Of a stretch of DNA of 64,000 nucleotides, positions 47,901 to 58,823 are shown piece after piece. Position numbers and translations under genes: made by a program. Position 1 is the stretch's first letter. Every line of letters begins with the position of its first letter. The stretch comes from Candidatus Doudnabacteria bacterium RIFCSPHIGHO2_02_FULL_42_25 (GTDB lineage: Bacteria > Patescibacteriota > Doudnabacteria > UBA920 > O2-02-FULL-48-8). The stretch is taken from positions 128,880 through 192,879 of the forward strand of contig MFEQ01000006.1 in NCBI GenBank assembly GCA_001777665.1. Reading direction: 5' to 3'. The notes below the pieces were generated by a model. It did no database searches, was not told where the DNA came from, and saw only the letters and a program-made list of their open reading frames with translations.

Positions 47901-48167
47901 CTACTTGTTTAACTTGAGCTTGTCCGTCAGCTTATCCCAGCGCTTTTCATCTTCGACTTTCAAATAGCGAAGCAGTCTACGACGATTGCCGACCATTTTC
48001 AGAAGACCTCGACGAGAGTGGTTGTCTTTTTTGTGCTCATTGAGATGCTCGGAAACTTTTTCAATTTCTCGAGTCAAAATCGCAACCTGTACTTCTGGAC
48101 TCCCAGTGTCGTCTTTGTGAACCTGGAATTTCTTAATAATTTGCTCTTTCTCTTTAGGAGTTAACAT
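47901..48167 (-). CDS. rpsO: 30S ribosomal protein S15
   Basis: [35 protein letters not shown]...[29 protein letters not shown]. Confidence 0.95.
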
Positions 48168-48260
48168 CTAGTTCCTTTCTGCACGAGTCAGCCAGAGATT
48201 AGCTAACCGTGGATTAATTCTCATTGATTCTAACATAATCAGTTTGTTTTGACAAGATAG

Positions 48261-49357
48261 TGTCCTGGTTCATATGATACCCTGCAATTGACTGGAAGAA
48301 ATTATGAGGGGCAGATACTCTGGTAGGACTATGACAACATATGGATATATCCTTCCTGGAGCAAGTAAGATTGCAAGATTAGCAACTAGTCTAAGCTCCA
48401 AAGCCAAACATCGAATTAAAGTCATTGACTGGTATAGAGCTCATGGCAAGAACAAAAGCTTAACAGCTAGGTATTTTGGAATGAACCGAGAGACATTGGA
48501 TATCTGGCTTGATCGGTTCAAGCTTCAAGGCATCAAAGGCTTGGAGGATCGATCGCATAGACCTAAACATTTAAGAACTACGAGCACGCCTTTGCCAGTC
48601 CAAGATGAAGTAGTCAAACTCAGAAAAGCTTTCCCGTATTACTCTAAATACAAAATCGTTCATTTGCTCTCAACGAAAATTAGTTCATCAACTGTCGGTA
48701 GGATATTAAAAAAGAAAGATTTAATTAATCCCAAAGTATCTAGAAAGAAAATTAAAGCAGCTAAGCACCCCAAGAAGCGATTTCCAAGGGAGTTAGTCGT
48801 AAATATGCCAGGAAAACTAATCCAAATTGATACTAAGCATCTGAGAACCTTTCAGGGAGTAAAGATCTACCAGTTCACGGCTATTGATGTTTTAACCAAA
48901 GTTCGAGTGCTTTGGGTGAGTACACATTTATCATCTGTCATGGCTGCAAAGTTCTTAAGGCACTGTGTTAGAAGTTTCCCCTTTAAGATCGAGAATATTC
49001 AAACAGACAATGGTTCAGAATTTAACAAACATTTTGACCGTTTGTGCCAGAAGCTTGGAAACACCCATTATTACATCGAGGCACACAGTCCCCAGCAGAA
49101 CAGCTACGTCGAACGCTCACACTTAACTGATGAGCTTGAGTTTTATCAGCAAGGTAACATGCATAATACTTTGGGCCAATTGCTTCCAAGGCTTAAGGCT
49201 TGGGAACATCAGTACAATCACCAAAGACCACATCAATCGCTCAACTACTTAACACCGATTCAGTATTTAAAAAAGTATCAAACTGAAACTTTAGCCACTA
49301 AAGATTACGTTGCATTACAAACTAACTAACTGTCGGATATCTATCTGAACCTAGACA
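48261..49357 (+). mobile_element. IS481-family-like insertion sequence with ~22-bp imperfect terminal IRs and 5-bp TSD (gatag)
   Basis: IRL tgtcctggttcatatgatacc (48261-) versus rc of IRR tgtctaggttcagatagatatcc (-49357). gatag at 48256-48260 and 49358-49362. Confidence 0.7.
48304..49329 (+). CDS. DDE transposase (HTH + rve integrase core)
   Basis: N-terminal HTH. Catalytic core IQIDTKHL...FTAIDVLTK...IQTDNGSEF...SPQQNSYVERSH (D, D, 35, E). Confidence 0.85.
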   Translation: MRGRYSGRTMTTYGYILPGASKIARLATSLSSKAKHRIKVIDWYRAHGKNKSLTARYFGMNRETLDIWLDRFKLQGIKGLEDRSHRPKHLRTTSTPLPVQDEVVKLRKAFPYYSKYKIVHLLSTKISSSTVGRILKKKDLINPKVSRKKIKAAKHPKKRFPRELVVNMPGKLIQIDTKHLRTFQGVKIYQFTAIDVLTKVRVLWVSTHLSSVMAAKFLRHCVRSFPFKIENIQTDNGSEFNKHFDRLCQKLGNTHYYIEAHSPQQNSYVERSHLTDELEFYQQGNMHNTLGQLLPRLKAWEHQYNHQRPHQSLNYLTPIQYLKKYQTETLATKDYVALQTN

Positions 49358-49416
49358 GATAGCTTTTCAAAACAAAATAAGCTATGCTTACGGCTCAGAA
49401 CAGAGGAGGAGTCACC

Positions 49417-50337
49417 GTGAAAAAGCTGGTCCTGCTTGTACTGCTAACGACTGCTGTGGGTACTGCGCACGCACAGCTCATTCAACCCCGGACGATTACC
49501 AACATAGAGGACTTATCACGAATCGGCGCCGAGATGCCGACCAACACCGAAACCTACGACGTTTACAAGGTCGGGGGCCGCTACCAAATCTACTACTTTC
49601 AAGTATCCTCTTTCAGTACGATGCTGGATTACCTGGGCCGGGTATTGCTCTGGAGCGATCTCCAAACTACCCAACTCAAGGGTCTGGGGGACGGCGTCAT
49701 CAACCAGCTCGACGACTACAACCATGATGGCAAGCTGGACGAAAAGGATGTCCTCTACGCCGTACTCGTTATATGGGGCGCTCGAGGACAAGCCGCTGGA
49801 GTCACCTACGATCTTGCGCATACCATGAAAGCGTTCAATGCTTACCTCGCGGCAGGAAGGACACTCCAGGTCTCTATGAGTCGAGCAGAAAGGTCGTTTC
49901 TCTCTGACCTCGAACGCTTCGGTTTGATCAAAGAGATCAGTGGTCAGTACGAAGTCCTGAAGCCGGCGTCGATAGTCATGGTCCAGCCACTCAATTTTTT
50001 CCGCGATCTGGATCCGAAGTCGGTCATTCTCCACGAGCTGAATCATGCAGTGGTTTTCCAAGAGCCGCGGTTCCGTCAGGCCGTAGCCGAAATATGGAAA
50101 ACCATGTTGCCGGCCGAGCAGGCTGCTATCAAAGAGCGCCTAGGTCGTATCGGACTCAATGTCGAGAACTTTGAACTGCTGACTGAGGAATTCGCTGCCT
50201 ATGCGGAAGAGGGGTTTACTGACTCTGTTCTCAATTCGTTCGGAGAACTAAACCTCATAGTGCCTTCGGCAACCCTGACACGTTTACAGGGAGCAGTAGT
50301 ACAGGCACTTAAGACCTTCAACGCCTTCGGTCAATAA
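49417..50337 (+). CDS. GC-rich secreted protein with HExxH zinc-peptidase motif
   Basis: GTG start with gaggagga SD. Signal peptide VKKLVLLVLLTTAVGTAHA. VILHELNHAV motif. GC-rich codon usage. Confidence 0.55.
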   Translation: MKKLVLLVLLTTAVGTAHAQLIQPRTITNIEDLSRIGAEMPTNTETYDVYKVGGRYQIYYFQVSSFSTMLDYLGRVLLWSDLQTTQLKGLGDGVINQLDDYNHDGKLDEKDVLYAVLVIWGARGQAAGVTYDLAHTMKAFNAYLAAGRTLQVSMSRAERSFLSDLERFGLIKEISGQYEVLKPASIVMVQPLNFFRDLDPKSVILHELNHAVVFQEPRFRQAVAEIWKTMLPAEQAAIKERLGRIGLNVENFELLTEEFAAYAEEGFTDSVLNSFGELNLIVPSATLTRLQGAVVQALKTFNAFGQ

Positions 50338-50456
50338 CGGATCTGCGTCTGAAAAATTCCTAGCCTGGATTCTTCGGACGTTTTTTTATTACTATTTTTC
50401 TGTTATACTTATGTCGTACAATATTGAGTTTTTCGTGATGTGCGAACATCTACTTT

Positions 50457-51422
50457 ATGCCAGAAACCAAATCAAAACTCCAAAGATATTACCAACAATT
50501 CCTGGAATATTTAGAAATCGAACGCAATCGATCGAAATTAACTTTGCGTAATTACGATCATTATCTGAAGCGCTTCGTAGATTTTTGCGCATCGCGCGGT
50601 GTAAATGATCCTGAAGATGTAGATTTAGAATTAGTTCGATCATTTCGACTTTTTTTAAACCGGATGACTGCCAAAGATAAGAATCTAAAAATCATTACCC
50701 AAAATTATCATCTCATTGCCCTACGCAGTTTTTTGAAATATTTAGCCAGACGTGATGTAAAATCTTTAACTGCCGAAAAAATTGAGTTACCTAAAACACC
50801 AGGCCGTACTGTGGAATTTCTGGATATCGATGACGTCGAGCGGCTCATCAAATCTACAGATGAAGAAAAAAGCAAACTCACTCGCCTACGCGACCGCGCA
50901 ATTTTGGAAATGCTTTTTTCCACCGGTCTTCGAATTTCCGAGCTAGTCAGCATTAAGAAAGACGGTTTGAACCTGAAAAGGGGGGAGTTTGCCGTCCGCG
51001 GCAAAGGCGACAAAATGCGTCTGGTCTTTCTCTCTCACAAGGCCATCGAATCACTGAATCAATACCTAAAAGAAAGAAAAGATAACTCAAAAGCCTTGTT
51101 TATCCGCCATGATGCCAAAGAATCAGTGGATAAACAAATGGAGTCAATGTCCGAATCCGCCAGCTGGCGGACTGGCTTAACACCCAGATCGATCCAGCGA
51201 ATTATAAAAAAATATGCGAAACTCGCTGGTATTACGAAAAAAATTACACCACATACTTTAAGACATTCCTTTGCGACAGATTTGCTAACCAATGGCGCTG
51301 ACCTGCGCTCGGTTCAAGAATTACTTGGCCACTCGTCTATTTCTACCACACAAATTTATACTCACCTTACAAATAAGCGTCTCCGCGACGTCTATGAAAA
51401 CTTCCACCGATTAGGCAAGTAG
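50457..51422 (+). CDS. Tyrosine site-specific recombinase (XerC/XerD-like)
   Basis: N-terminal SAM-like domain. Catalytic R...LRHSFATDLL...HSSISTTQIYTHL (R-H-R-H-Y). Confidence 0.85.
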   Translation: MPETKSKLQRYYQQFLEYLEIERNRSKLTLRNYDHYLKRFVDFCASRGVNDPEDVDLELVRSFRLFLNRMTAKDKNLKIITQNYHLIALRSFLKYLARRDVKSLTAEKIELPKTPGRTVEFLDIDDVERLIKSTDEEKSKLTRLRDRAILEMLFSTGLRISELVSIKKDGLNLKRGEFAVRGKGDKMRLVFLSHKAIESLNQYLKERKDNSKALFIRHDAKESVDKQMESMSESASWRTGLTPRSIQRIIKKYAKLAGITKKITPHTLRHSFATDLLTNGADLRSVQELLGHSSISTTQIYTHLTNKRLRDVYENFHRLGK

Positions 51423-51473
51423 GCTATACTGAAACCTACAAGACCTCACCCGAGGTCATTCACGGAGGCACTC

Positions 51474-51854
51474 ATGGTCGACACTCCCAGCGTCAGTCGC
51501 GCGGCAGCCGTGCAAAAAGTCGTGATCGTCAACGGCAACACCGAAGTGCTTGGAATGGTTGAGCCCATTCTGGAAGCCGGTCGCTACGACATGGTGTTCG
51601 TGGAAACCGATGAACATGCCTATTCGCAGATCAAAAAACAGCTACCGAGTCTCGTCATCCTCTGCACCCGCATCGAGCACCTCGACGGTTTCCAGCTCCT
51701 GACTATGCTCAAACTCGATCCTGCGACTAAGGACATCCCAGTTCTGACCTGCACCACCGAGCATGAGGGCCAGGACTTCGACACCGCCATTAGCCAACTG
51801 GCTGACGAAGAGGAAGACACAATCCCGAGTCAGCCAGCGCTGCGAATGAATTAG
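51474..51854 (+). CDS. GC-rich receiver-like (pseudo-receiver) domain protein
   Basis: CheY-like layout KVVIVNGN...VFVET...LVILCTRIEHLDGFQLLTMLK, but the phospho-acceptor Asp position is Cys and the acidic pocket is degenerate. Confidence 0.45.
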   Translation: MVDTPSVSRAAAVQKVVIVNGNTEVLGMVEPILEAGRYDMVFVETDEHAYSQIKKQLPSLVILCTRIEHLDGFQLLTMLKLDPATKDIPVLTCTTEHEGQDFDTAISQLADEEEDTIPSQPALRMN

Positions 51855-52084
51855 GGGGCCTATGAGACCCCAACCACAAGCCAGCTGGGCACTTTTCTGC
51901 CCACTGGCTATTCTTTTGGACTTTCAACCACTAATTTATAATATATAGGTAAGATAATTTGTAATATGAAAGGCTACAAAATGAGGGCAATTTGTCTTTC
52001 TTGCCACGTCCAAAAATTAACCATTTGTTCACGATCGTATATTAATGGTTAAAAACCAGAATACTCCGACGCTACGGATCGGAG

Positions 52085-52267
52085 TTATTTTTGCTTCGCA
52101 AAAATAACAAAAGCGCCGGGGACTATGCTGGGAAGAATAGTCCTCGAATTTTGGCCGCGTCGCTGAAAAGGACGAATAGCTTCTACGACTTTGTCACGCG
52201 AGATTTCGATGTCATCGAGATGGGTATTAGGAAACGCCGACTCGAGTACATGTGTCCAATCAGCCAT
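52085..52267 (-). CDS. Hypothetical small protein
   Basis: 60 aa ORF followed on the minus strand by hairpin ctccga..tcggag + T-run. Weak. Confidence 0.25.
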   Translation of the reverse strand: MADWTHVLESAFPNTHLDDIEISRDKVVEAIRPFQRRGQNSRTILPSIVPGAFVIFAKQK

Positions 52268-52349
52268 GGTATTCCTCCTTTTGGACTGATTCCTTATAAA
52301 AGTCTAGTACCAGATTGAAACCTTGTCTAGGGTCAGTTACAATAATGGC

Positions 52350-52994
52350 ATGAGTTTAAAAACTTATCACAAAAAACGAAAATTTAACGAGACACCGGAA
52401 CCAAAAGGTAGAGCTGTTAAAACAGCAAAGGCTTTACACTTTGTAATCCAAAAACACGAAGCAACTCGGCTGCATTATGATTTTCGGCTCGAGCACCGAG
52501 GCGTACTTTTGAGTTGGGCCGTACCGAAAGGTCCAGCTTTAAGAGTAGAGGATAAAAGATTGGCTATGATGGTCGAGGATCATCCGGTCGACTATATGAA
52601 ATTTGAAGGCACGATTCCAGAAGGGAATTATGGCGCTGGGACCGTCATGGTTTGGGATTTTGGGAATTATTTAGCGCTTGGAGCGGATTCATTAGCAGAA
52701 AGCGAAAAATTGATCAAAGCCGGGCTGAAAAAAGGAGAATTGAAATTTATATTGAATGGCAAAAAACTTCAGGGCGGATTTGCATTGATCAAAACTAAAT
52801 TTGGCGGAGCCAAAAATTCTTGGCTCCTGATCAAAGAAAAAGATCAGTATGTCAAAAATGTTGATGTGACAAAGAAAGCTAGGTCAGCACTAACTGGGAA
52901 ATCTATGACGCAGATATCTAAAGGCGATAGAATCTGGAAAAGCAATAAGAAAAAGCGTCTTAAGTTTATCGGCAGCGCCACGCGTATCGGTTAA
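52350..52994 (+). CDS. LigD 3'-phosphoesterase (PE) domain protein, stand-alone
   Basis: KRKFNETPEP...HFVIQKHEATRLHYDFRLE..GVLLSWAVPKGP LigD_N/PE signature. Start at 52350. Confidence 0.8.
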   Translation: MSLKTYHKKRKFNETPEPKGRAVKTAKALHFVIQKHEATRLHYDFRLEHRGVLLSWAVPKGPALRVEDKRLAMMVEDHPVDYMKFEGTIPEGNYGAGTVMVWDFGNYLALGADSLAESEKLIKAGLKKGELKFILNGKKLQGGFALIKTKFGGAKNSWLLIKEKDQYVKNVDVTKKARSALTGKSMTQISKGDRIWKSNKKKRLKFIGSATRIG

Positions 52995-53040
52995 CGTAAG
53001 ACGATACGCGCAGCGCCGACGAATAACGATTAACGCATTT
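52971..53040. repeat. GC-rich palindromic repeat element (copy 2) spanning PE stop to ligase start
   Basis: ggcagcgccacgcgtatcg-gttaacgtaaga-cgatacgcgcagcgc-cgacgaataacg-attaacgcattt. Inverted relative to 24664-24755. Confidence 0.6.
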
Positions 53041-53961
53041 ATGCGATATATCAAACCCATGCTAGCAACTTTAGTCAAAGAACCCTTCAATCGTGAGGGG
53101 TGGATTTTTGAGATCAAATGGGATGGCTTCCGTGCAGTTGCTGATATTAATCGCTCCGAAGTTCGGCTTTATTCCAGAAATTTTTTAAATTTTAACGAAA
53201 AGTTTCAGCCAATTGTCCAAGCTTTGCAAAAACTCAAACTCCAGGCAATTTTTGACGGTGAAGTTGTCGTCCTCGACAAACGCGGCAAATCGCATTTCCA
53301 GCTGCTTCAAAATTTTCAGGAAACAGGGGAGGGACAACTAACCTATTACGTCTTTGACATTTTAAGCTTGAATGGTAAAAATCTGATGACCACTCCCCTC
53401 CTGGAACGAAAAAAAATTTTGAAGAAAATTTTGCCCAAAAATAAGCTAATTAAGTACTCGGATCACATAGAAAAAAACGGGATTAATTTTTTCAAAATTG
53501 CGAAGAAAAGTGGGTTGGAAGGAATCATAGCCAAAGAAGCTTCAAGTCCCTATCGACCTGGAAAACGAACCCTAGAATGGCAAAAAATCAAGGTTCACAT
53601 GCAGCAAGAAGCTGTTATAGCTGGCTTTACCGAACCCCGGGGTGGTCGCAAAAAATTCGGAGCTCTAGTTTTAGGAGTTTATAACAGAGACAAATTAGTT
53701 TATATCGGTCATACTGGTGGTGGCTTTAATGAAGAAAGTTTAAATCTGATTTACAATAAGCTGAAACCGATAGTGCAGAAGCGATCCCCTTTTGATGTAG
53801 CTCCCAAAACCAATACCCCGGTAACCTGGGTCAAACCCAAATTAGTCTGTGAGATTACTTTCAGTGAATGGACCTCTGATGGGCACATGCGACAACCGAT
53901 TTTCCTCGGGATTCGACCAGATAAAAGTCCAAAAGAAGTAAAACGAGAAAGACCAATATGA
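53041..53961 (+). CDS. ATP-dependent DNA ligase (LigD ligase-domain type)
   Basis: Motif I EIKWDGFR (KxDG), ...YVFDIL..., OB domain. 306 aa. Confidence 0.85.
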   Translation: MRYIKPMLATLVKEPFNREGWIFEIKWDGFRAVADINRSEVRLYSRNFLNFNEKFQPIVQALQKLKLQAIFDGEVVVLDKRGKSHFQLLQNFQETGEGQLTYYVFDILSLNGKNLMTTPLLERKKILKKILPKNKLIKYSDHIEKNGINFFKIAKKSGLEGIIAKEASSPYRPGKRTLEWQKIKVHMQQEAVIAGFTEPRGGRKKFGALVLGVYNRDKLVYIGHTGGGFNEESLNLIYNKLKPIVQKRSPFDVAPKTNTPVTWVKPKLVCEITFSEWTSDGHMRQPIFLGIRPDKSPKEVKRERPI

Positions 53962-54845
53962 AAAAAGAAGTAAAATTATCCAATCTTAAGAAAATTTTTT
54001 GGCCAAAAGAAAAAATTACTAAGGGTGATGTGATTAATTATTATGAAAAAATATCTCCTTACATCCTCCCCTACCTCAAAGACCGACCAGAGTCCCTAAA
54101 TCGTCATCCAAATGGAATTAATGGAGGAAGTTTTTTTCAAAAAGACGTAGACCACATGCCACCGGCTTGGGTTAAAACCCAAAAGGTGTTTTCAGAGTCC
54201 ACAGATTCCGATATTAATTATCTGGTCTGCAATGATAAAGAAACCTTACTTTACATGGCCAATTTGGGTTGCATCGAAATCAATCCCTGGTTTTCTACAA
54301 CCAAACATTTAGAAAAACCGGATTATGCAGTGCTAGATTTAGACCCGGAAGAAATTGGGTTCGACAAAGTTATCGAGGTCGCACAGGCCACGCATAATAT
54401 TTTAGAAAAGTTAAAAGTCCTCAATTATTGCAAAACGTCAGGAGCCACTGGACTTCATATCTATATTCCACTGGGTGCGAAATATTCTTATGAACAAGCA
54501 AAACACTTCATCCAACTAATCGCAGCCCTCGTAAATAAAAAACTACCGGACATTACCAGTTTGGAGCGAAGGCCAGCTAACCGAAAGAAGAAAATCTATT
54601 TGGATTATTTACAGAATCGTAAAGGACAAACATTAGCAGCTCCTTATAGCTTGCGCCCGAAGCCTGGTGCTCCTGTGGCTACTCCCTTAGAATGGAGGGA
54701 AGTCAAAAAAGGATTGAAGCCCACAGATTTTCATATCAAAAATATTTTTACTCGATTAAACAAAAAAGGTGATCTGTTCAAGCCTGTGCTGGGCAAAGGC
54801 ATTGACCTATCGACCACCCTTAAGCGAATAGAGAAACTAAGCTAG
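53958..54845 (+). CDS. LigD polymerase/primase (PrimPol) domain protein, stand-alone
   Basis: ...LNRHPNGINGGSFFQKD..., LDLDP catalytic motif, ...SGATGLHIYIPL.... 4-nt overlap with the ligase gene. Confidence 0.8.
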   Translation: MKKEVKLSNLKKIFWPKEKITKGDVINYYEKISPYILPYLKDRPESLNRHPNGINGGSFFQKDVDHMPPAWVKTQKVFSESTDSDINYLVCNDKETLLYMANLGCIEINPWFSTTKHLEKPDYAVLDLDPEEIGFDKVIEVAQATHNILEKLKVLNYCKTSGATGLHIYIPLGAKYSYEQAKHFIQLIAALVNKKLPDITSLERRPANRKKKIYLDYLQNRKGQTLAAPYSLRPKPGAPVATPLEWREVKKGLKPTDFHIKNIFTRLNKKGDLFKPVLGKGIDLSTTLKRIEKLS

Positions 54846-56758: not shown

Positions 56759-56883
56759 ATTTTATTCCTTTATTTAATGCTTAACGTAAGCATATGCCTA
56801 AAAAATTCGTTTGTAAAATACCCGAGTAATTGGTAATCTATAAGGCTTGGTTCCCTTCACTTTCAACTCGGAGGAGTTTAAAA

Positions 56884-57492
56884 ATGGCTAATAAGAAGCG
56901 GCTGGGTATTCTGATCTCTGGTCGCGGGAGCAACATGGTTAACATCGCTCGGAAAGTTGAGTCCGGCATCATTGATGCCAAAGTCTCTATCGTCATCTCA
57001 GACGTCGCTGAAGCTCCAGGGCTTGATCTGGCAAAAGGGTTGGGTCTCAAAACCCTCCACCTCTCCCCGAAAGGCATGCCAAAACTCGACTACGACAATC
57101 TACTCGCCGGCACACTTCTCGAGTATGAAGTGAATATCGTGATCCTTGCCGGCTTCATGCGCTTGGTCAAAGAACCGTTGCTGGCGGCTTTTCGCAACGA
57201 CATCTTGAACATCCACCCTTCTCTACTTCCGTCGTTTCCAGGACTGCACGCTCATCGCGACGTTCTCGCACACGGTGCGAAAGTCTCCGGGTGCACAGTT
57301 CATCTGGTCAACAACAAGACTGATGACGGTCCGATCATCGTCCAGCGCACCTGTCCGGTATGGGACACTGACACGGAAGAAACTTTGGCAGCGCGGGTAC
57401 TGGAACAGGAACACATTGCCTTTCCAGAGGCAATCAACATTCATCTCGCTGGCAAATGGATGATCAACGGCCGGCGTTTCGTGAGAGGATAA
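56884..57492 (+). CDS. purN: Phosphoribosylglycinamide formyltransferase
   Basis: ggagga SD. MANKKRLGILISGRGSNM..., NIHPSLLPSFPG. GC-rich. Confidence 0.85.
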   Translation: MANKKRLGILISGRGSNMVNIARKVESGIIDAKVSIVISDVAEAPGLDLAKGLGLKTLHLSPKGMPKLDYDNLLAGTLLEYEVNIVILAGFMRLVKEPLLAAFRNDILNIHPSLLPSFPGLHAHRDVLAHGAKVSGCTVHLVNNKTDDGPIIVQRTCPVWDTDTEETLAARVLEQEHIAFPEAINIHLAGKWMINGRRFVRG

Positions 57493-57497
57493 ACGAC

Positions 57498-58823
57498 ATG
57501 CGAATTTGGCTACTAGGAACTGAGGGTCGGCTGGCCAAGATGGCACGACATCTCAACAAGTTCGGACACGACGTGTTCTTTTCCGGGCCCGGTTGTCCTG
57601 GAACTGAACGACATGCTTCGCGCATCAAATTCGATCTCAAGGAACTGGACTTCCAGAAGATGCGGCAACTCGCATCGGACCACGCGATCGATTTGGCTGT
57701 TCCAGGTTCCGAGGACCTACTCGATCAAGGAATCGTCAACGAGTTCGAAGGAGTTTGCCGGGTATTCGGTCCGACGCGTGAAGCGGTCAAACTCGAAACC
57801 GACAAACGGTTCTCCTACGAAATCATGACGAATGTCAAAATCCCACAGGCCTTCACCCGATGGTACGAGAACTTCCATATCGCTTACGGGGATCTCAAAT
57901 CCCACTTCGATAACTTCGACCTGCCGCTCGTAATCAAGCCACAAGGTCCCACTGCCGGGAAAGGTGTTATCGTCGCACACGATCTGGCAACTGGCAAAAA
58001 AGCCTTGAAGGACATGCTGGTTGATCATAAGTACAAAGAAGCCAGCCGCATGATCGGACTCGCTGACTACCTGACAGGCTCGGAGTGCACTGTATTCGTC
58101 CTCAGCGACGGGCACGAAGACTCGATCCGATTTTTTGCAGCGGCACGTGACTGCAAAGCCGCCTGGCCAGCCAAGGATGGCAAGCCTGCAGGACCGAACA
58201 CGGGTGGCATGTGGGGACTTTCAAGCATCCCAGAATGGGATGAGTTCCTTTACGAAGAAGTAATGGGCTATGCACGAAACGTTATCAGACTCATGCGTCG
58301 AATGCGGCATCCTTTCCGAGGGTGCCTCTATATCTCGCTGAAGCTCGTACCCATGGAAGATCTCCCACGACTTGTGACACCTACGGTGGTCGAATTCAAC
58401 GGCAGATTCGGTGATCCGGAAGCGCAAGCCACGTTCGAGCGACTCGAAAGTGACCTCGCTCCGATTCTCTGGGCTTGCACGGAATCAGGCAAGCTCAATT
58501 CAGTCGAAATCAAGATGAGCGATCGCGTCGGTGGTTGTCTCGTCATTGCCGCCCCGGGTTATCCGGAATCCTCTCAGAAGGGAGGAAAGATCACTGGGAC
58601 CGAGGAAGCCGAAGCCCTAGGTGTGGAAGTCGAACATTGCGGCACCAAACTCAACGACGCCAACGAACTAGTCGTCGACGGCGGCAGGGTTCTCAACCTC
58701 AATGCTTCTGATGCTAACGTTGAGGCACTCCGCGACAAACTGAACAGAGCAGCGGCCTGCATCCACTTCGAAGGAGGTCAGCACTGGCGCAACGACTTCG
58801 GTGATCCCTCAGTAGCGTCATAG
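57498..58823 (+). CDS. purD: Phosphoribosylamine--glycine ligase
   Basis: MRIWLLGTEGR..., ATP-grasp LVIKPQGPTAGKGVIVA. GC-rich. Confidence 0.85.
   Translation: MRIWLLGTEGRLAKMARHLNKFGHDVFFSGPGCPGTERHASRIKFDLKELDFQKMRQLASDHAIDLAVPGSEDLLDQGIVNEFEGVCRVFGPTREAVKLETDKRFSYEIMTNVKIPQAFTRWYENFHIAYGDLKSHFDNFDLPLVIKPQGPTAGKGVIVAHDLATGKKALKDMLVDHKYKEASRMIGLADYLTGSECTVFVLSDGHEDSIRFFAAARDCKAAWPAKDGKPAGPNTGGMWGLSSIPEWDEFLYEEVMGYARNVIRLMRRMRHPFRGCLYISLKLVPMEDLPRLVTPTVVEFNGRFGDPEAQATFERLESDLAPILWACTESGKLNSVEIKMSDRVGGCLVIAAPGYPESSQKGGKITGTEEAEALGVEVEHCGTKLNDANELVVDGGRVLNLNASDANVEALRDKLNRAAACIHFEGGQHWRNDFGDPSVAS

Follow-up and report, generated by a model that had tools for sequence, protein, structure and literature searches.

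Between the ribosomal protein gene rpsO and a cluster of LigD-type genes, contig MFEQ01000006.1 of Candidatus Doudnabacteria bacterium RIFCSPHIGHO2_02_FULL_42_25 carries an insertion sequence (IS), a GC-rich gene for a protein with an HExxH motif, a tyrosine recombinase gene, and a GC-rich gene for a receiver-like protein. Do these genes form one small mobile element, with the recombinase as its integrase, or did they come together in separate events? We address this question in a window of 64,000 nucleotides (positions 128,880 to 192,879 of the contig, forward strand; coordinates below are those of the window). The source lineage, Candidatus Doudnabacteria, belongs to the candidate phyla radiation (CPR), and the organism is an ultra-small groundwater bacterium of the Rifle aquifer. 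The gene order is pnp and rpsO (minus strand, ending at 48167), the transposase gene, the open reading frame (ORF) with the HELNH motif, the tyrosine recombinase, the receiver-like ORF, and the LigD-type genes, which are three separate ORFs (phosphoesterase, ligase, and PrimPol). A first-pass annotation of the window had placed the interval between rpsO and the LigD cluster, and this location is correct, with rpsO and pnp on the left and the LigD phosphoesterase, ligase, and PrimPol on the right.

We find with good confidence that the interval is not one mobile element but a mosaic, put together around a core gene by independent events. In the proposed sequence of events, a foreign HExxH cassette with its own ribosome-binding site and terminator would first have entered the spacer of the native xer promoter. 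A 1,097-bp IS would then have inserted by ordinary DDE transposition, duplicating GATAG. This order is suggested because only the IS lies between the two copies of the duplication, and because the target sequence runs on from one side of the IS to the other. The receiver-like gene would have been acquired separately, downstream of xer, from a Vicinamibacterales-like donor.

The recombinase gene and its neighborhood in relatives

The recombinase (321 amino acids; 50457 to 51422, plus strand) is a core syntenic gene with a strong match to Phage_integrase (E = 1.3e-44). The relatives used for comparison were found by a PNPase protein scan with one genome per species, which returned nine Doudnabacteria-like loci at 73 to 78% PNPase identity and one at 63%; the labels L003 to L118 used below denote the homologous loci and contigs compared with the window. 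In six Doudnabacteria (L019, L020, L022, L023, L024, and L026), the recombinase divergently adjoins rpsO, at 74 to 88% identity, and in four of these (L019, L022, L023, and L024) the rpsO-xer intergenic region is only 137 to 178 bp long. The GC content of the gene (0.411) and its GC content at third codon positions (GC3; 0.401) are like those of pnp, rpsO, and the LigD genes, whereas the flanking foreign genes have GC3 values of 0.61 and 0.69. Because of the shared synteny with rpsO in six relatives and the host-like composition, we regard the recombinase as native; it is best read as the lineage's own housekeeping Xer-type enzyme and not as the integrase of a mobile element. The first-pass annotation had listed it as cargo of the GC-rich patch. 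A tyrosine recombinase is indeed present, but its role as cargo does not survive the comparison with relatives. In the rpsO-pnp synteny comparison proposed in the same annotation, the HExxH gene is absent from the six relatives, while the recombinase is native there.

Among NCBIfam models, the recombinase passes the XerA-type model (236.9 bits against a cut-off of 220) but misses the equivalog cut-offs of both XerC (258.2 against 335.15) and XerD (256.7 against 329.6). Just 5′ of its ATG lie the native −10 box TATACT and an inverted repeat, GTCGTACAAT-N15-ATGTGCGAAC (together 50404 to 50447, plus strand), which are the same in L019 and L023 to L026. The repeat (GTCGyrCAAT and ATTGnrCGAC, 14 to 15 nt apart; 50413 to 50447) stands between TATACT and the xer start and occurs once per Doudnabacteria locus examined. 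With arms of about 10 to 12 nt and a spacer of 10 to 15 nt, the palindrome is longer than known dif cores. It may serve a single Xer as a dif-like site, but given its location between the −10 box and the ATG, it could equally act as an operator or form a leader hairpin. In having one Xer that is lineage-conserved, syntenic, and adjoined by a palindrome, the locus is like the single-recombinase Xer systems (archaeal XerA, XerS/difSL, and XerH/difH), among which difSL adjoins xerS. It differs from them in that no dif site was identified and in the atypical geometry of the palindrome.

The HExxH gene and its cassette

Intergenic alignment with L019, L022, L023, and L024 delimits a foreign single-gene cassette of about 1.03 kb (49363 to 50390, plus or minus about 10 nt; plus strand; GC 0.515). 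Its position corresponds to the 15- to 16-nt spacer between the −35 and −10 boxes of the xer promoter in relatives, and both the HExxH gene and the IS are absent at this site in all six. The gene (49417 to 50337, plus strand; GC 0.526, GC3 0.606) encodes 306 amino acids from a GTG start, preceded by the Shine-Dalgarno sequence GAGGAGGA at 49403 to 49410; NCBI calls the same ORF as 317 amino acids from an ATG at 49384. A terminator-like hairpin with a T-run (50346 to 50387, plus strand) ends the cassette; we read it from the sequence, and the consensus scan did not list it. The first-pass annotation had described a GC-rich ORF with a GTG start, a signal-peptide-like N terminus, and the HELNH motif, and all of these features are present. 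Its view that the HExxH and receiver-like genes are accessory also holds, since most relatives conserve neither, and their GC3 values are 0.606 and 0.685. High GC content by itself is a weak marker of foreignness here, because the window is patchy and ranges from 33 to 53% GC.

The HExxH family is rare. A full HMMER scan of 1.84 billion cluster representatives found 29 homologs at E ≤ 1e-3, several of which are domains within proteins of 900 to 3,200 amino acids, and a word-indexed search of 5.8 billion proteins gave four matches, two of them copies from the same population. In the two closest homologs (51 to 55% identical), too, the gene has a higher GC content than the AT-rich DNA around it. 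One of them comes from a sample named "01um", which we take to be the 0.1-μm filter fraction of groundwater. Together, distribution, composition, and position suggest that the gene is foreign, forms a cassette of its own, and belongs to a very rare family.

The N terminus of the protein is signal-peptide-like (MKKLVLLVLLTTAVGTAHA|Q), the HELNH motif is encoded at 50032 to 50046, and H206, E207, H210, W227, and E258 are invariant in 10 HExxH sequences. We infer that E258, which lies in EEFAAY, is the downstream zinc ligand. A structure predicted from the 10-sequence alignment reached a pLDDT of 86.9 and a pTM of 0.85, against a pLDDT of 43 from three sequences. A Foldseek search of this model against the PDB gave no significant match, and the protein had no match in Pfam (E ≤ 10), NCBIfam, or PHROGs, nor any on viral contigs. 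Profile searches against PDB sequences returned only weak EF-hand/dockerin matches. The product is probably a Sec-secreted zinc endopeptidase. A more specific reading, as a secreted gluzincin-type endopeptidase distantly like M34, carries moderate to low confidence. The protein has the HExxH motif and downstream Glu that mark M34/ATLF (PPEP-2, PPEP-3, and anthrax lethal factor). Unlike M34/ATLF, however, it has no sequence match to Pfam ATLF or to any Pfam or NCBIfam family at E ≤ 10, and the EF-hand/dockerin-like DxNxDGxxD loop in its N-terminal half has no counterpart there.

The insertion sequence

The IS occupies 48261 to 49357 (plus strand; 1,097 bp; GC 0.394). Its ends were defined by inverted repeats, a target-site duplication, and loss of similarity in relatives (L008 to L011 and L102 to L118). 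The left inverted repeat (IRL), TGTCCTGGTTCATATGATA, spans 48261 to 48279 (plus strand) and holds a −10-like TATGAT at 48273 to 48278; the right one (IRR; reverse complement TGTCTAGGTTCAGATAGATA) spans 49338 to 49357 (minus strand) and has the −35-like tip TAGACA. Aligned with a single gap, the two agree at 16 of 20 positions, and both start with TGT (an imperfect TGT...ACA pair). A perfect 5-bp duplication, GATAG, stands at 48256 to 48260 and again at 49358 to 49362.

The IS481-like insertion with genuine inverted repeats and a 5-bp duplication, as called in the first-pass annotation, is borne out by two kinds of evidence. In a chance test, none of 300 shuffles of the ORF flanks reached an anchored inverted repeat as good as this one directly beside a perfect 5-bp repeat (observed score 11, best shuffle 10). 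In addition, related elements, with transposases 85% (L008) or 65, 56, and 54% identical at the amino acid level (L009 to L011, L112, L117, and L102 to L111), start and end at the homologous bases while their flanks are unrelated. In L008, similarity to the window begins exactly at TGTCC, and the contig stops exactly at ...GGACA. Four related copies carry 5-bp duplications of their own (GTGCG, TAAAA, GCTAA, and GGAAA). We judge the comparative evidence for the ends to be stronger than the shuffle test as an argument that the IS is real.

The transposase (341 amino acids; 48304 to 49329, plus strand) is encoded by one uninterrupted ORF with no programmed frameshift. It combines HTH_28/HTH_32 with rve/rve_3 (Pfam), and its DDE triad, D176-D235-E270, is invariant in 20 homologs. 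The best annotated relatives, which are plasmid proteins, are named "IS481 family transposase" and are about 32% identical. The NCBIfam IS481 model matches over its full length (1 to 283 of 284) with 212.9 bits and beats the next family, IS3 (107.6 bits), by 105 bits. Because the length, the TGT...ACA tips, and the 5-bp duplication also fit the family, we file the element under a known family, as a probable divergent IS481 member. Weighing against this assignment, the score falls 11 bits short of the curated cut-off of 224. Like other members (e.g., IS481 of Bordetella pertussis), the element has a single ORF with HTH and rve DDE domains, a length of about 1.1 kb, TGT...ACA tips, and a short duplication; it is unlike the family in its low (~32%) identity to annotated transposases and its score just below the NCBIfam cut-off. 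In the IS481 family, most duplications measure 6 bp, within a range of 2 to 15 bp (PMC10045372); here the length is 5 bp. The clade to which the element belongs, with 1,698 transposase homologs, seems to occur mainly on metagenomic CPR-type contigs, with one match named Gracilibacteria. Its closest relative, the 85% identical element in L008 (1 to 618), is inserted directly after another rve-type transposase gene, which suggests an IS-rich region in that genome.

The insertion had been called recent and probably active, which goes beyond what the data allow. The IS is the sole copy in the window, and all contigs read with the exact transposase, including a 99.8%-identical variant strain, have it at the same site. 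It could be active, since its ORF and ends are intact, but a 5-bp duplication is too short to date the insertion. The IS thus appears to be single-copy; against this stands the fact that the estimate comes from the window and an exact-protein index and not from a whole-genome scan. An IS-free allele of the target site would read TTGACAAGATAGCTTTTC. The IS-free junction GTTTTGACAAGATAGCTTTTCAAAAC had no matches in metagenome contigs, but a control, the left end of the IS (known in JGI 3300002502), had none either, so that the collection does not include this population. Two contigs, L003 and L012, were considered as alternative HExxH alleles and rejected: Their differences come down to N gaps in old scaffolds or a gap difference of 70 bp, and the IS is present in both. 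A 16-mer at 52324 to 52339, TGTCTAGGGTCAGTTA, just 5′ of the LigD phosphoesterase start, is oriented like the IRL and agrees with the terminal repeat of the IS at 14 of its 16 positions. The expected number of such matches per window is about 0.03, the 16-mer is not conserved in L026, and it probably arose by chance.

Target preference and promoter geometry

The IS starts six bases past a TTGACA hexamer (48249 to 48254, plus strand), with its IRL side adjoining. In relatives, the rpsO-xer intergenic region consists of the rpsO leader, a shared ..TTGACAAG.. box, and the TATACT −10 box of xer 15 to 16 nt further on. The hexamer is the −35 box shared by the divergent rpsO and ancestral xer promoters, and it represents the target motif of the IS, TTGWCA-A-N5|IRL. 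Among 11 distinct left junctions of the IS clade, four carry an exact TTGACA or TTGTCA hexamer at −12 to −7 and six a hexamer with at most one mismatch, and position −6 is A in all 11. Relative to hexamer frequencies in the window, TTGWCA is strongly enriched (P = 1.6e-11 for exact matches, P = 8.5e-10 with one mismatch). The right flanks of these junctions share no common motif. The preference is therefore oriented, as the motif stands on left junctions only. The clade appears to insert repeatedly at this position relative to TTGWCA, after the motif and in one orientation. IS481 itself targets NCTAGN, unlike the TTGWCA-A-N5 target and fixed orientation seen here.

The tip of the IRR is TAGACA here and TGGACA in relatives, from which it may be that the transposase treats the target TTGWCA as a surrogate right end; the geometry of insertion would then resemble the IRR-N5-IRL junction of a copy-out circle. 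IS3-type elements form circular intermediates with abutted ends. In IS911, IS2, and IS30, insertion occurs near end-like sequences, and a −35 box in one end plus a −10 box in the other forms a strong junction promoter. The element is like these IS3-family and IS30 systems in inserting a few bases from an end-like sequence, in its fixed orientation, and in having −35-like and −10-like boxes split between its ends; were both ends of the IS abutted with a 5-bp spacer, the gap between TAGACA and TATGAT would be 17 nt. In comparison with IS911, IS2, and IS30, the likeness here consists of one hexamer only (TTGWCA against TAGACA/TGGACA), read from sequence alone.

Such an insertion would also rebuild a junction-like promoter for the transposase. 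A consensus promoter scan found TTGACA-18 nt-TATGAT (11 of 12 positions matching), with the −10 box within the IRL and pointing into the transposase gene. The TTGACA set 18 nt 5′ of TATGAT should thus drive the transposase, while the rpsO promoter (TTGTCA-17 nt-TAGAAT, minus strand) is left untouched by the IS and should stay intact. The end-mimic and promoter readings are inseparable because the hexamer is also the sigma-70 −35 consensus. An IS481-like clade oriented by TTGWCA would tend to strike promoters, and the captured −35 box would drive its transposase.

Several points weigh against this account. The target motif was noticed first and tested afterward, and several of the multi-copy contigs are probably assembly chimeras, as their left and right flanks mismatch. 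Both the surrogate end and the promoter capture are inferences. As a separate observation, the flanks of the IS at 48243 to 48252 and 49367 to 49376 are complementary (TTTGTTTTGA / TCAAAACAAA), such that the preinsertion site would form a hairpin with a 10-bp stem, whose loop now contains the IS. Of the two arms, the left one is native and the right one comes from the foreign cassette.

The receiver-like gene

The receiver-like gene (51474 to 51854, plus strand; GC 0.556, GC3 0.685) encodes 126 amino acids and is followed by a GC-rich hairpin with a T-rich tail, terminator-like as read from the sequence (51879 to 51917, plus strand). The protein passes the Pfam Response_reg model (32.3 bits against a gathering threshold of 30.2). 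The phosphoacceptor D57 of CheY aligns to Cys64, and the acidic pair D12 and D13 is replaced by NG (N20 and G21, in an NGN motif). The first-pass annotation had noted the Cys at the acceptor position, correctly, but had taken it for a replacement in this genome. The Cys and the NGN motif are conserved in all receiver-like homologs displayed, which argues that they are a trait of the family and not a sign of decay. With its CheY-like fold by Pfam, the missing acceptor Asp and acidic pair, and a strongly conserved sequence, the protein is like phosphorylation-independent pseudo-receivers and presumably acts by protein-protein contacts, free of phosphorylation. It is unlike known pseudo-receivers in belonging to a distinct stand-alone family of 124 to 140 amino acids whose genes adjoin those for PilZ-domain proteins and M28 peptidases in the Acidobacteria-type contigs examined.

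This family has 1,783 homologs, on contigs of up to 5.6 Mb, with identities of 75% or more among the best 120. The closest homologs show 80 to 87% amino acid and 75 to 78% nucleotide identity, limited to the gene itself. They are found on contigs of 62 to 64% GC within a conserved M28 peptidase / REC / PilZ / GGACT / ABC-transporter neighborhood, and one of the contigs is named Vicinamibacterales. The receiver-like gene thus appears to be foreign, from an Acidobacteriota (Vicinamibacterales)-like donor. The direction of transfer would be from Acidobacteria to Doudnabacteria because the donor synteny lies on high-GC contigs and the window gene has a GC3 of 0.685 and its own terminator-like hairpin.

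L023 complicates this reading. It carries a homolog of the receiver-like gene at the same place, directly after xer (50 to 55% identical, GC3 0.64, with the motifs NGS, LVILC, and IPVLT), and the L023 protein is equally distant from the window protein and from the Acidobacteria proteins. L020, L022, L024, and L026 have no such gene behind xer. The homolog may reflect two acquisitions at the same spot or a single old one followed by very unequal divergence. The L023 homolog would favor an old resident of the site, acquired once before the window lineage and L023 split. Such an origin is unlikely, as the window protein is 80 to 87% identical to Acidobacteria proteins but only about 50% to that of L023, the gene is missing in four relatives, and its GC3 of 0.685 contrasts with about 0.40 in native genes. 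A separate acquisition from the Vicinamibacterales-like donor remains the reading that we prefer.

Origin of the mosaic

A tyrosine recombinase between two GC-rich, nonconserved genes, in surroundings that differ among relatives, invites the reading of a small integrative element whose integrase would be the XerD-like recombinase and whose cargo would be the HExxH and receiver-like genes. We consider this very improbable, and the model is largely refuted by synteny: xer is syntenic with rpsO in all six relatives noted above, four of which have no cargo between the two genes. The recombinase also has a host-like GC3, there are no direct repeats or tRNA genes, and the two supposed cargo genes differ in the distribution of their homologs. 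Specifically, we found no att-type direct repeats around either foreign gene in the window, no tRNA genes between 43 and 57 kb, and no second copy of the xer-upstream palindrome around the cassettes. The locus most plausibly holds no integrative element or island, because there is no tRNA, there are no bracketing repeats, and the foreign genes are of different origin and flank a core gene. Where the first-pass annotation spoke of a small integrative or accessory patch, the accessory part stands for two genes, but the integrative part does not, with neither att repeats nor a tRNA nor an island integrase; the search that it proposed for att-like repeats around the foreign genes found no boundary direct repeats in the window. 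The IS might instead have carried the HExxH gene in, as a passenger or by one-ended mobilization, given that the two are directly adjacent and the IS lies only a few bases from the left boundary of the cassette. However, the GATAG duplication brackets the IS alone, the IRR is upstream of the HExxH gene, and related IS copies examined have no such gene beside them, which makes this explanation highly unlikely. The adjacency is explained by the preference of the IS for the TTGACA box.

Could the rpsO-xer region itself act as a landing pad where foreign single-gene cassettes arrive repeatedly, possibly by way of Xer, as a minimal platform like an integron or an integrative mobile element exploiting Xer (IMEX) that rests on the housekeeping Xer and the palindrome beside its gene? 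Inserts between rpsO and xer, unrelated to those of the window, occur in L020 (3253 to 4833, 1.6 kb) and L026 (8427 to 9537, 1.1 kb), and their ORFs have no Pfam or PHROGs match. The three species (window, L020, and L026) thus hold unrelated inserts of 1.0 to 1.6 kb in this intergenic region. Those of the window and L026 both lie in the xer promoter spacer and both end in a terminator. A 9-bp direct repeat, TTTTCCTGT, brackets the L026 insert, a conserved inverted repeat stands 5′ of xer in all relatives, and two divergent versions of the receiver-like gene lie just after xer in two species. Against a landing pad, the palindrome is duplicated around no insert, the window cassette has no flanking repeat, about 0.15 repeats like that of L026 are expected by chance, and the L020 insert is at a different point. 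A divergent promoter region may simply be permissive for insertions, and GC skew and gene orientation are not terminus-like here, where a dif site would be expected. We therefore rate as improbable both the landing pad and the wider proposal that the Xer-adjacent promoter region with its palindrome is a recurrent, possibly Xer-dependent capture site, with the receiver-like gene pointing to an Acidobacteria partner or host; a capture hotspot is kept in view because the rpsO-xer inserts vary and the L026 insert has a repeat. If it is real, different Doudnabacteria species hold different cassettes there. Least probable of all is an artefact of assembly or binning, in which Acidobacteria reads were joined into a CPR contig. 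The composition jumps are sharp, and the receiver-like protein closely resembles one from an abundant soil phylum, as such an artefact would have it. Yet independent assemblies (NCBI, JGI, ENA, and Logan), made from several samples with several pipelines, agree at 100% over a 4.6-kb stretch of the locus, on contigs of up to 355 kb, which makes an assembly artefact unlikely. Furthermore, nucleotide identity to the Acidobacteria genes is only 75 to 78% and ends at the gene limits, and both foreign genes come with a neat ribosome-binding site and terminator of their own in AT-rich CPR surroundings. The window also has identical counterparts in contig MFFA01000003.1 of GCA_001780055.1 and in a JGI contig from the Rifle aquifer; NCBI attributes the transposase to Candidatus Doudnabacteria bacterium RIFCSPLOWO2_02_FULL.

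A mosaic of independent events around xer accordingly remains the explanation that we favor; a further point against it is that an entry mechanism was found for neither foreign gene. For annotation, it means that the tyrosine recombinase would be described as a chromosomal Xer and not as an island integrase, and the Cys-for-Asp receiver as a member of a conserved family and not as a decayed gene. The locus would also represent a clean, independently assembled case of gene transfer from Acidobacteria (Vicinamibacterales-like) to CPR bacteria, which may hint at whom these episymbiont-like cells live with. We regard it as modestly interesting for the apparent oriented TTGWCA preference and the seemingly clear Acidobacteria-to-CPR transfer, and otherwise as an ordinary mosaic in which an IS stands beside genes gained by horizontal transfer.

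Other features of the window

Beyond the interval, the purN/purD region (56830 to 58823) has 52 to 53% GC against 41.6% for the window, and further GC-rich kilobase patches lie at about 16 to 17 kb and 22 to 25 kb. As composition is patchy throughout the window, other genes may also have been acquired. At about 48000 to 52000, gene orientation flips from mostly minus to plus, and GC skew changes from about −0.1 to around 0 or slightly positive, with a minimum or plateau of the cumulative skew. This pattern looks more origin-like than terminus-like.

The three-gene LigD set (52350 to 54845) is otherwise present only in L026 (2561 to 5148); L022 and L023 lack it between xer and the gene for a 362-amino-acid protein. 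Conversely, a convergent ABC transporter gene (587 to 591 amino acids) follows xer in L020, L023, L024, and L026, and the window is without it. The AT-rich spacer between the receiver-like gene and LigD contains a 60-amino-acid ORF (52085 to 52267, minus strand), which is called by all annotations and has no Pfam or PHROGs family match. It adjoins a 36-bp palindrome, TTAACCAT...ATGGTTAA, at 52017 to 52052.

On the other side of the interval, the rpsO leader (48168 to 48225) is conserved between the window and L019 to L027, in the form CCTTTnTGnCACG...stem...CCGTCG/CCGTGG-ATTAATT. An Rfam scan of 47.6 to 52.5 kb, which included this leader, gave no match, and its conservation suggests that it may be an S15 autoregulatory leader of an undescribed type.

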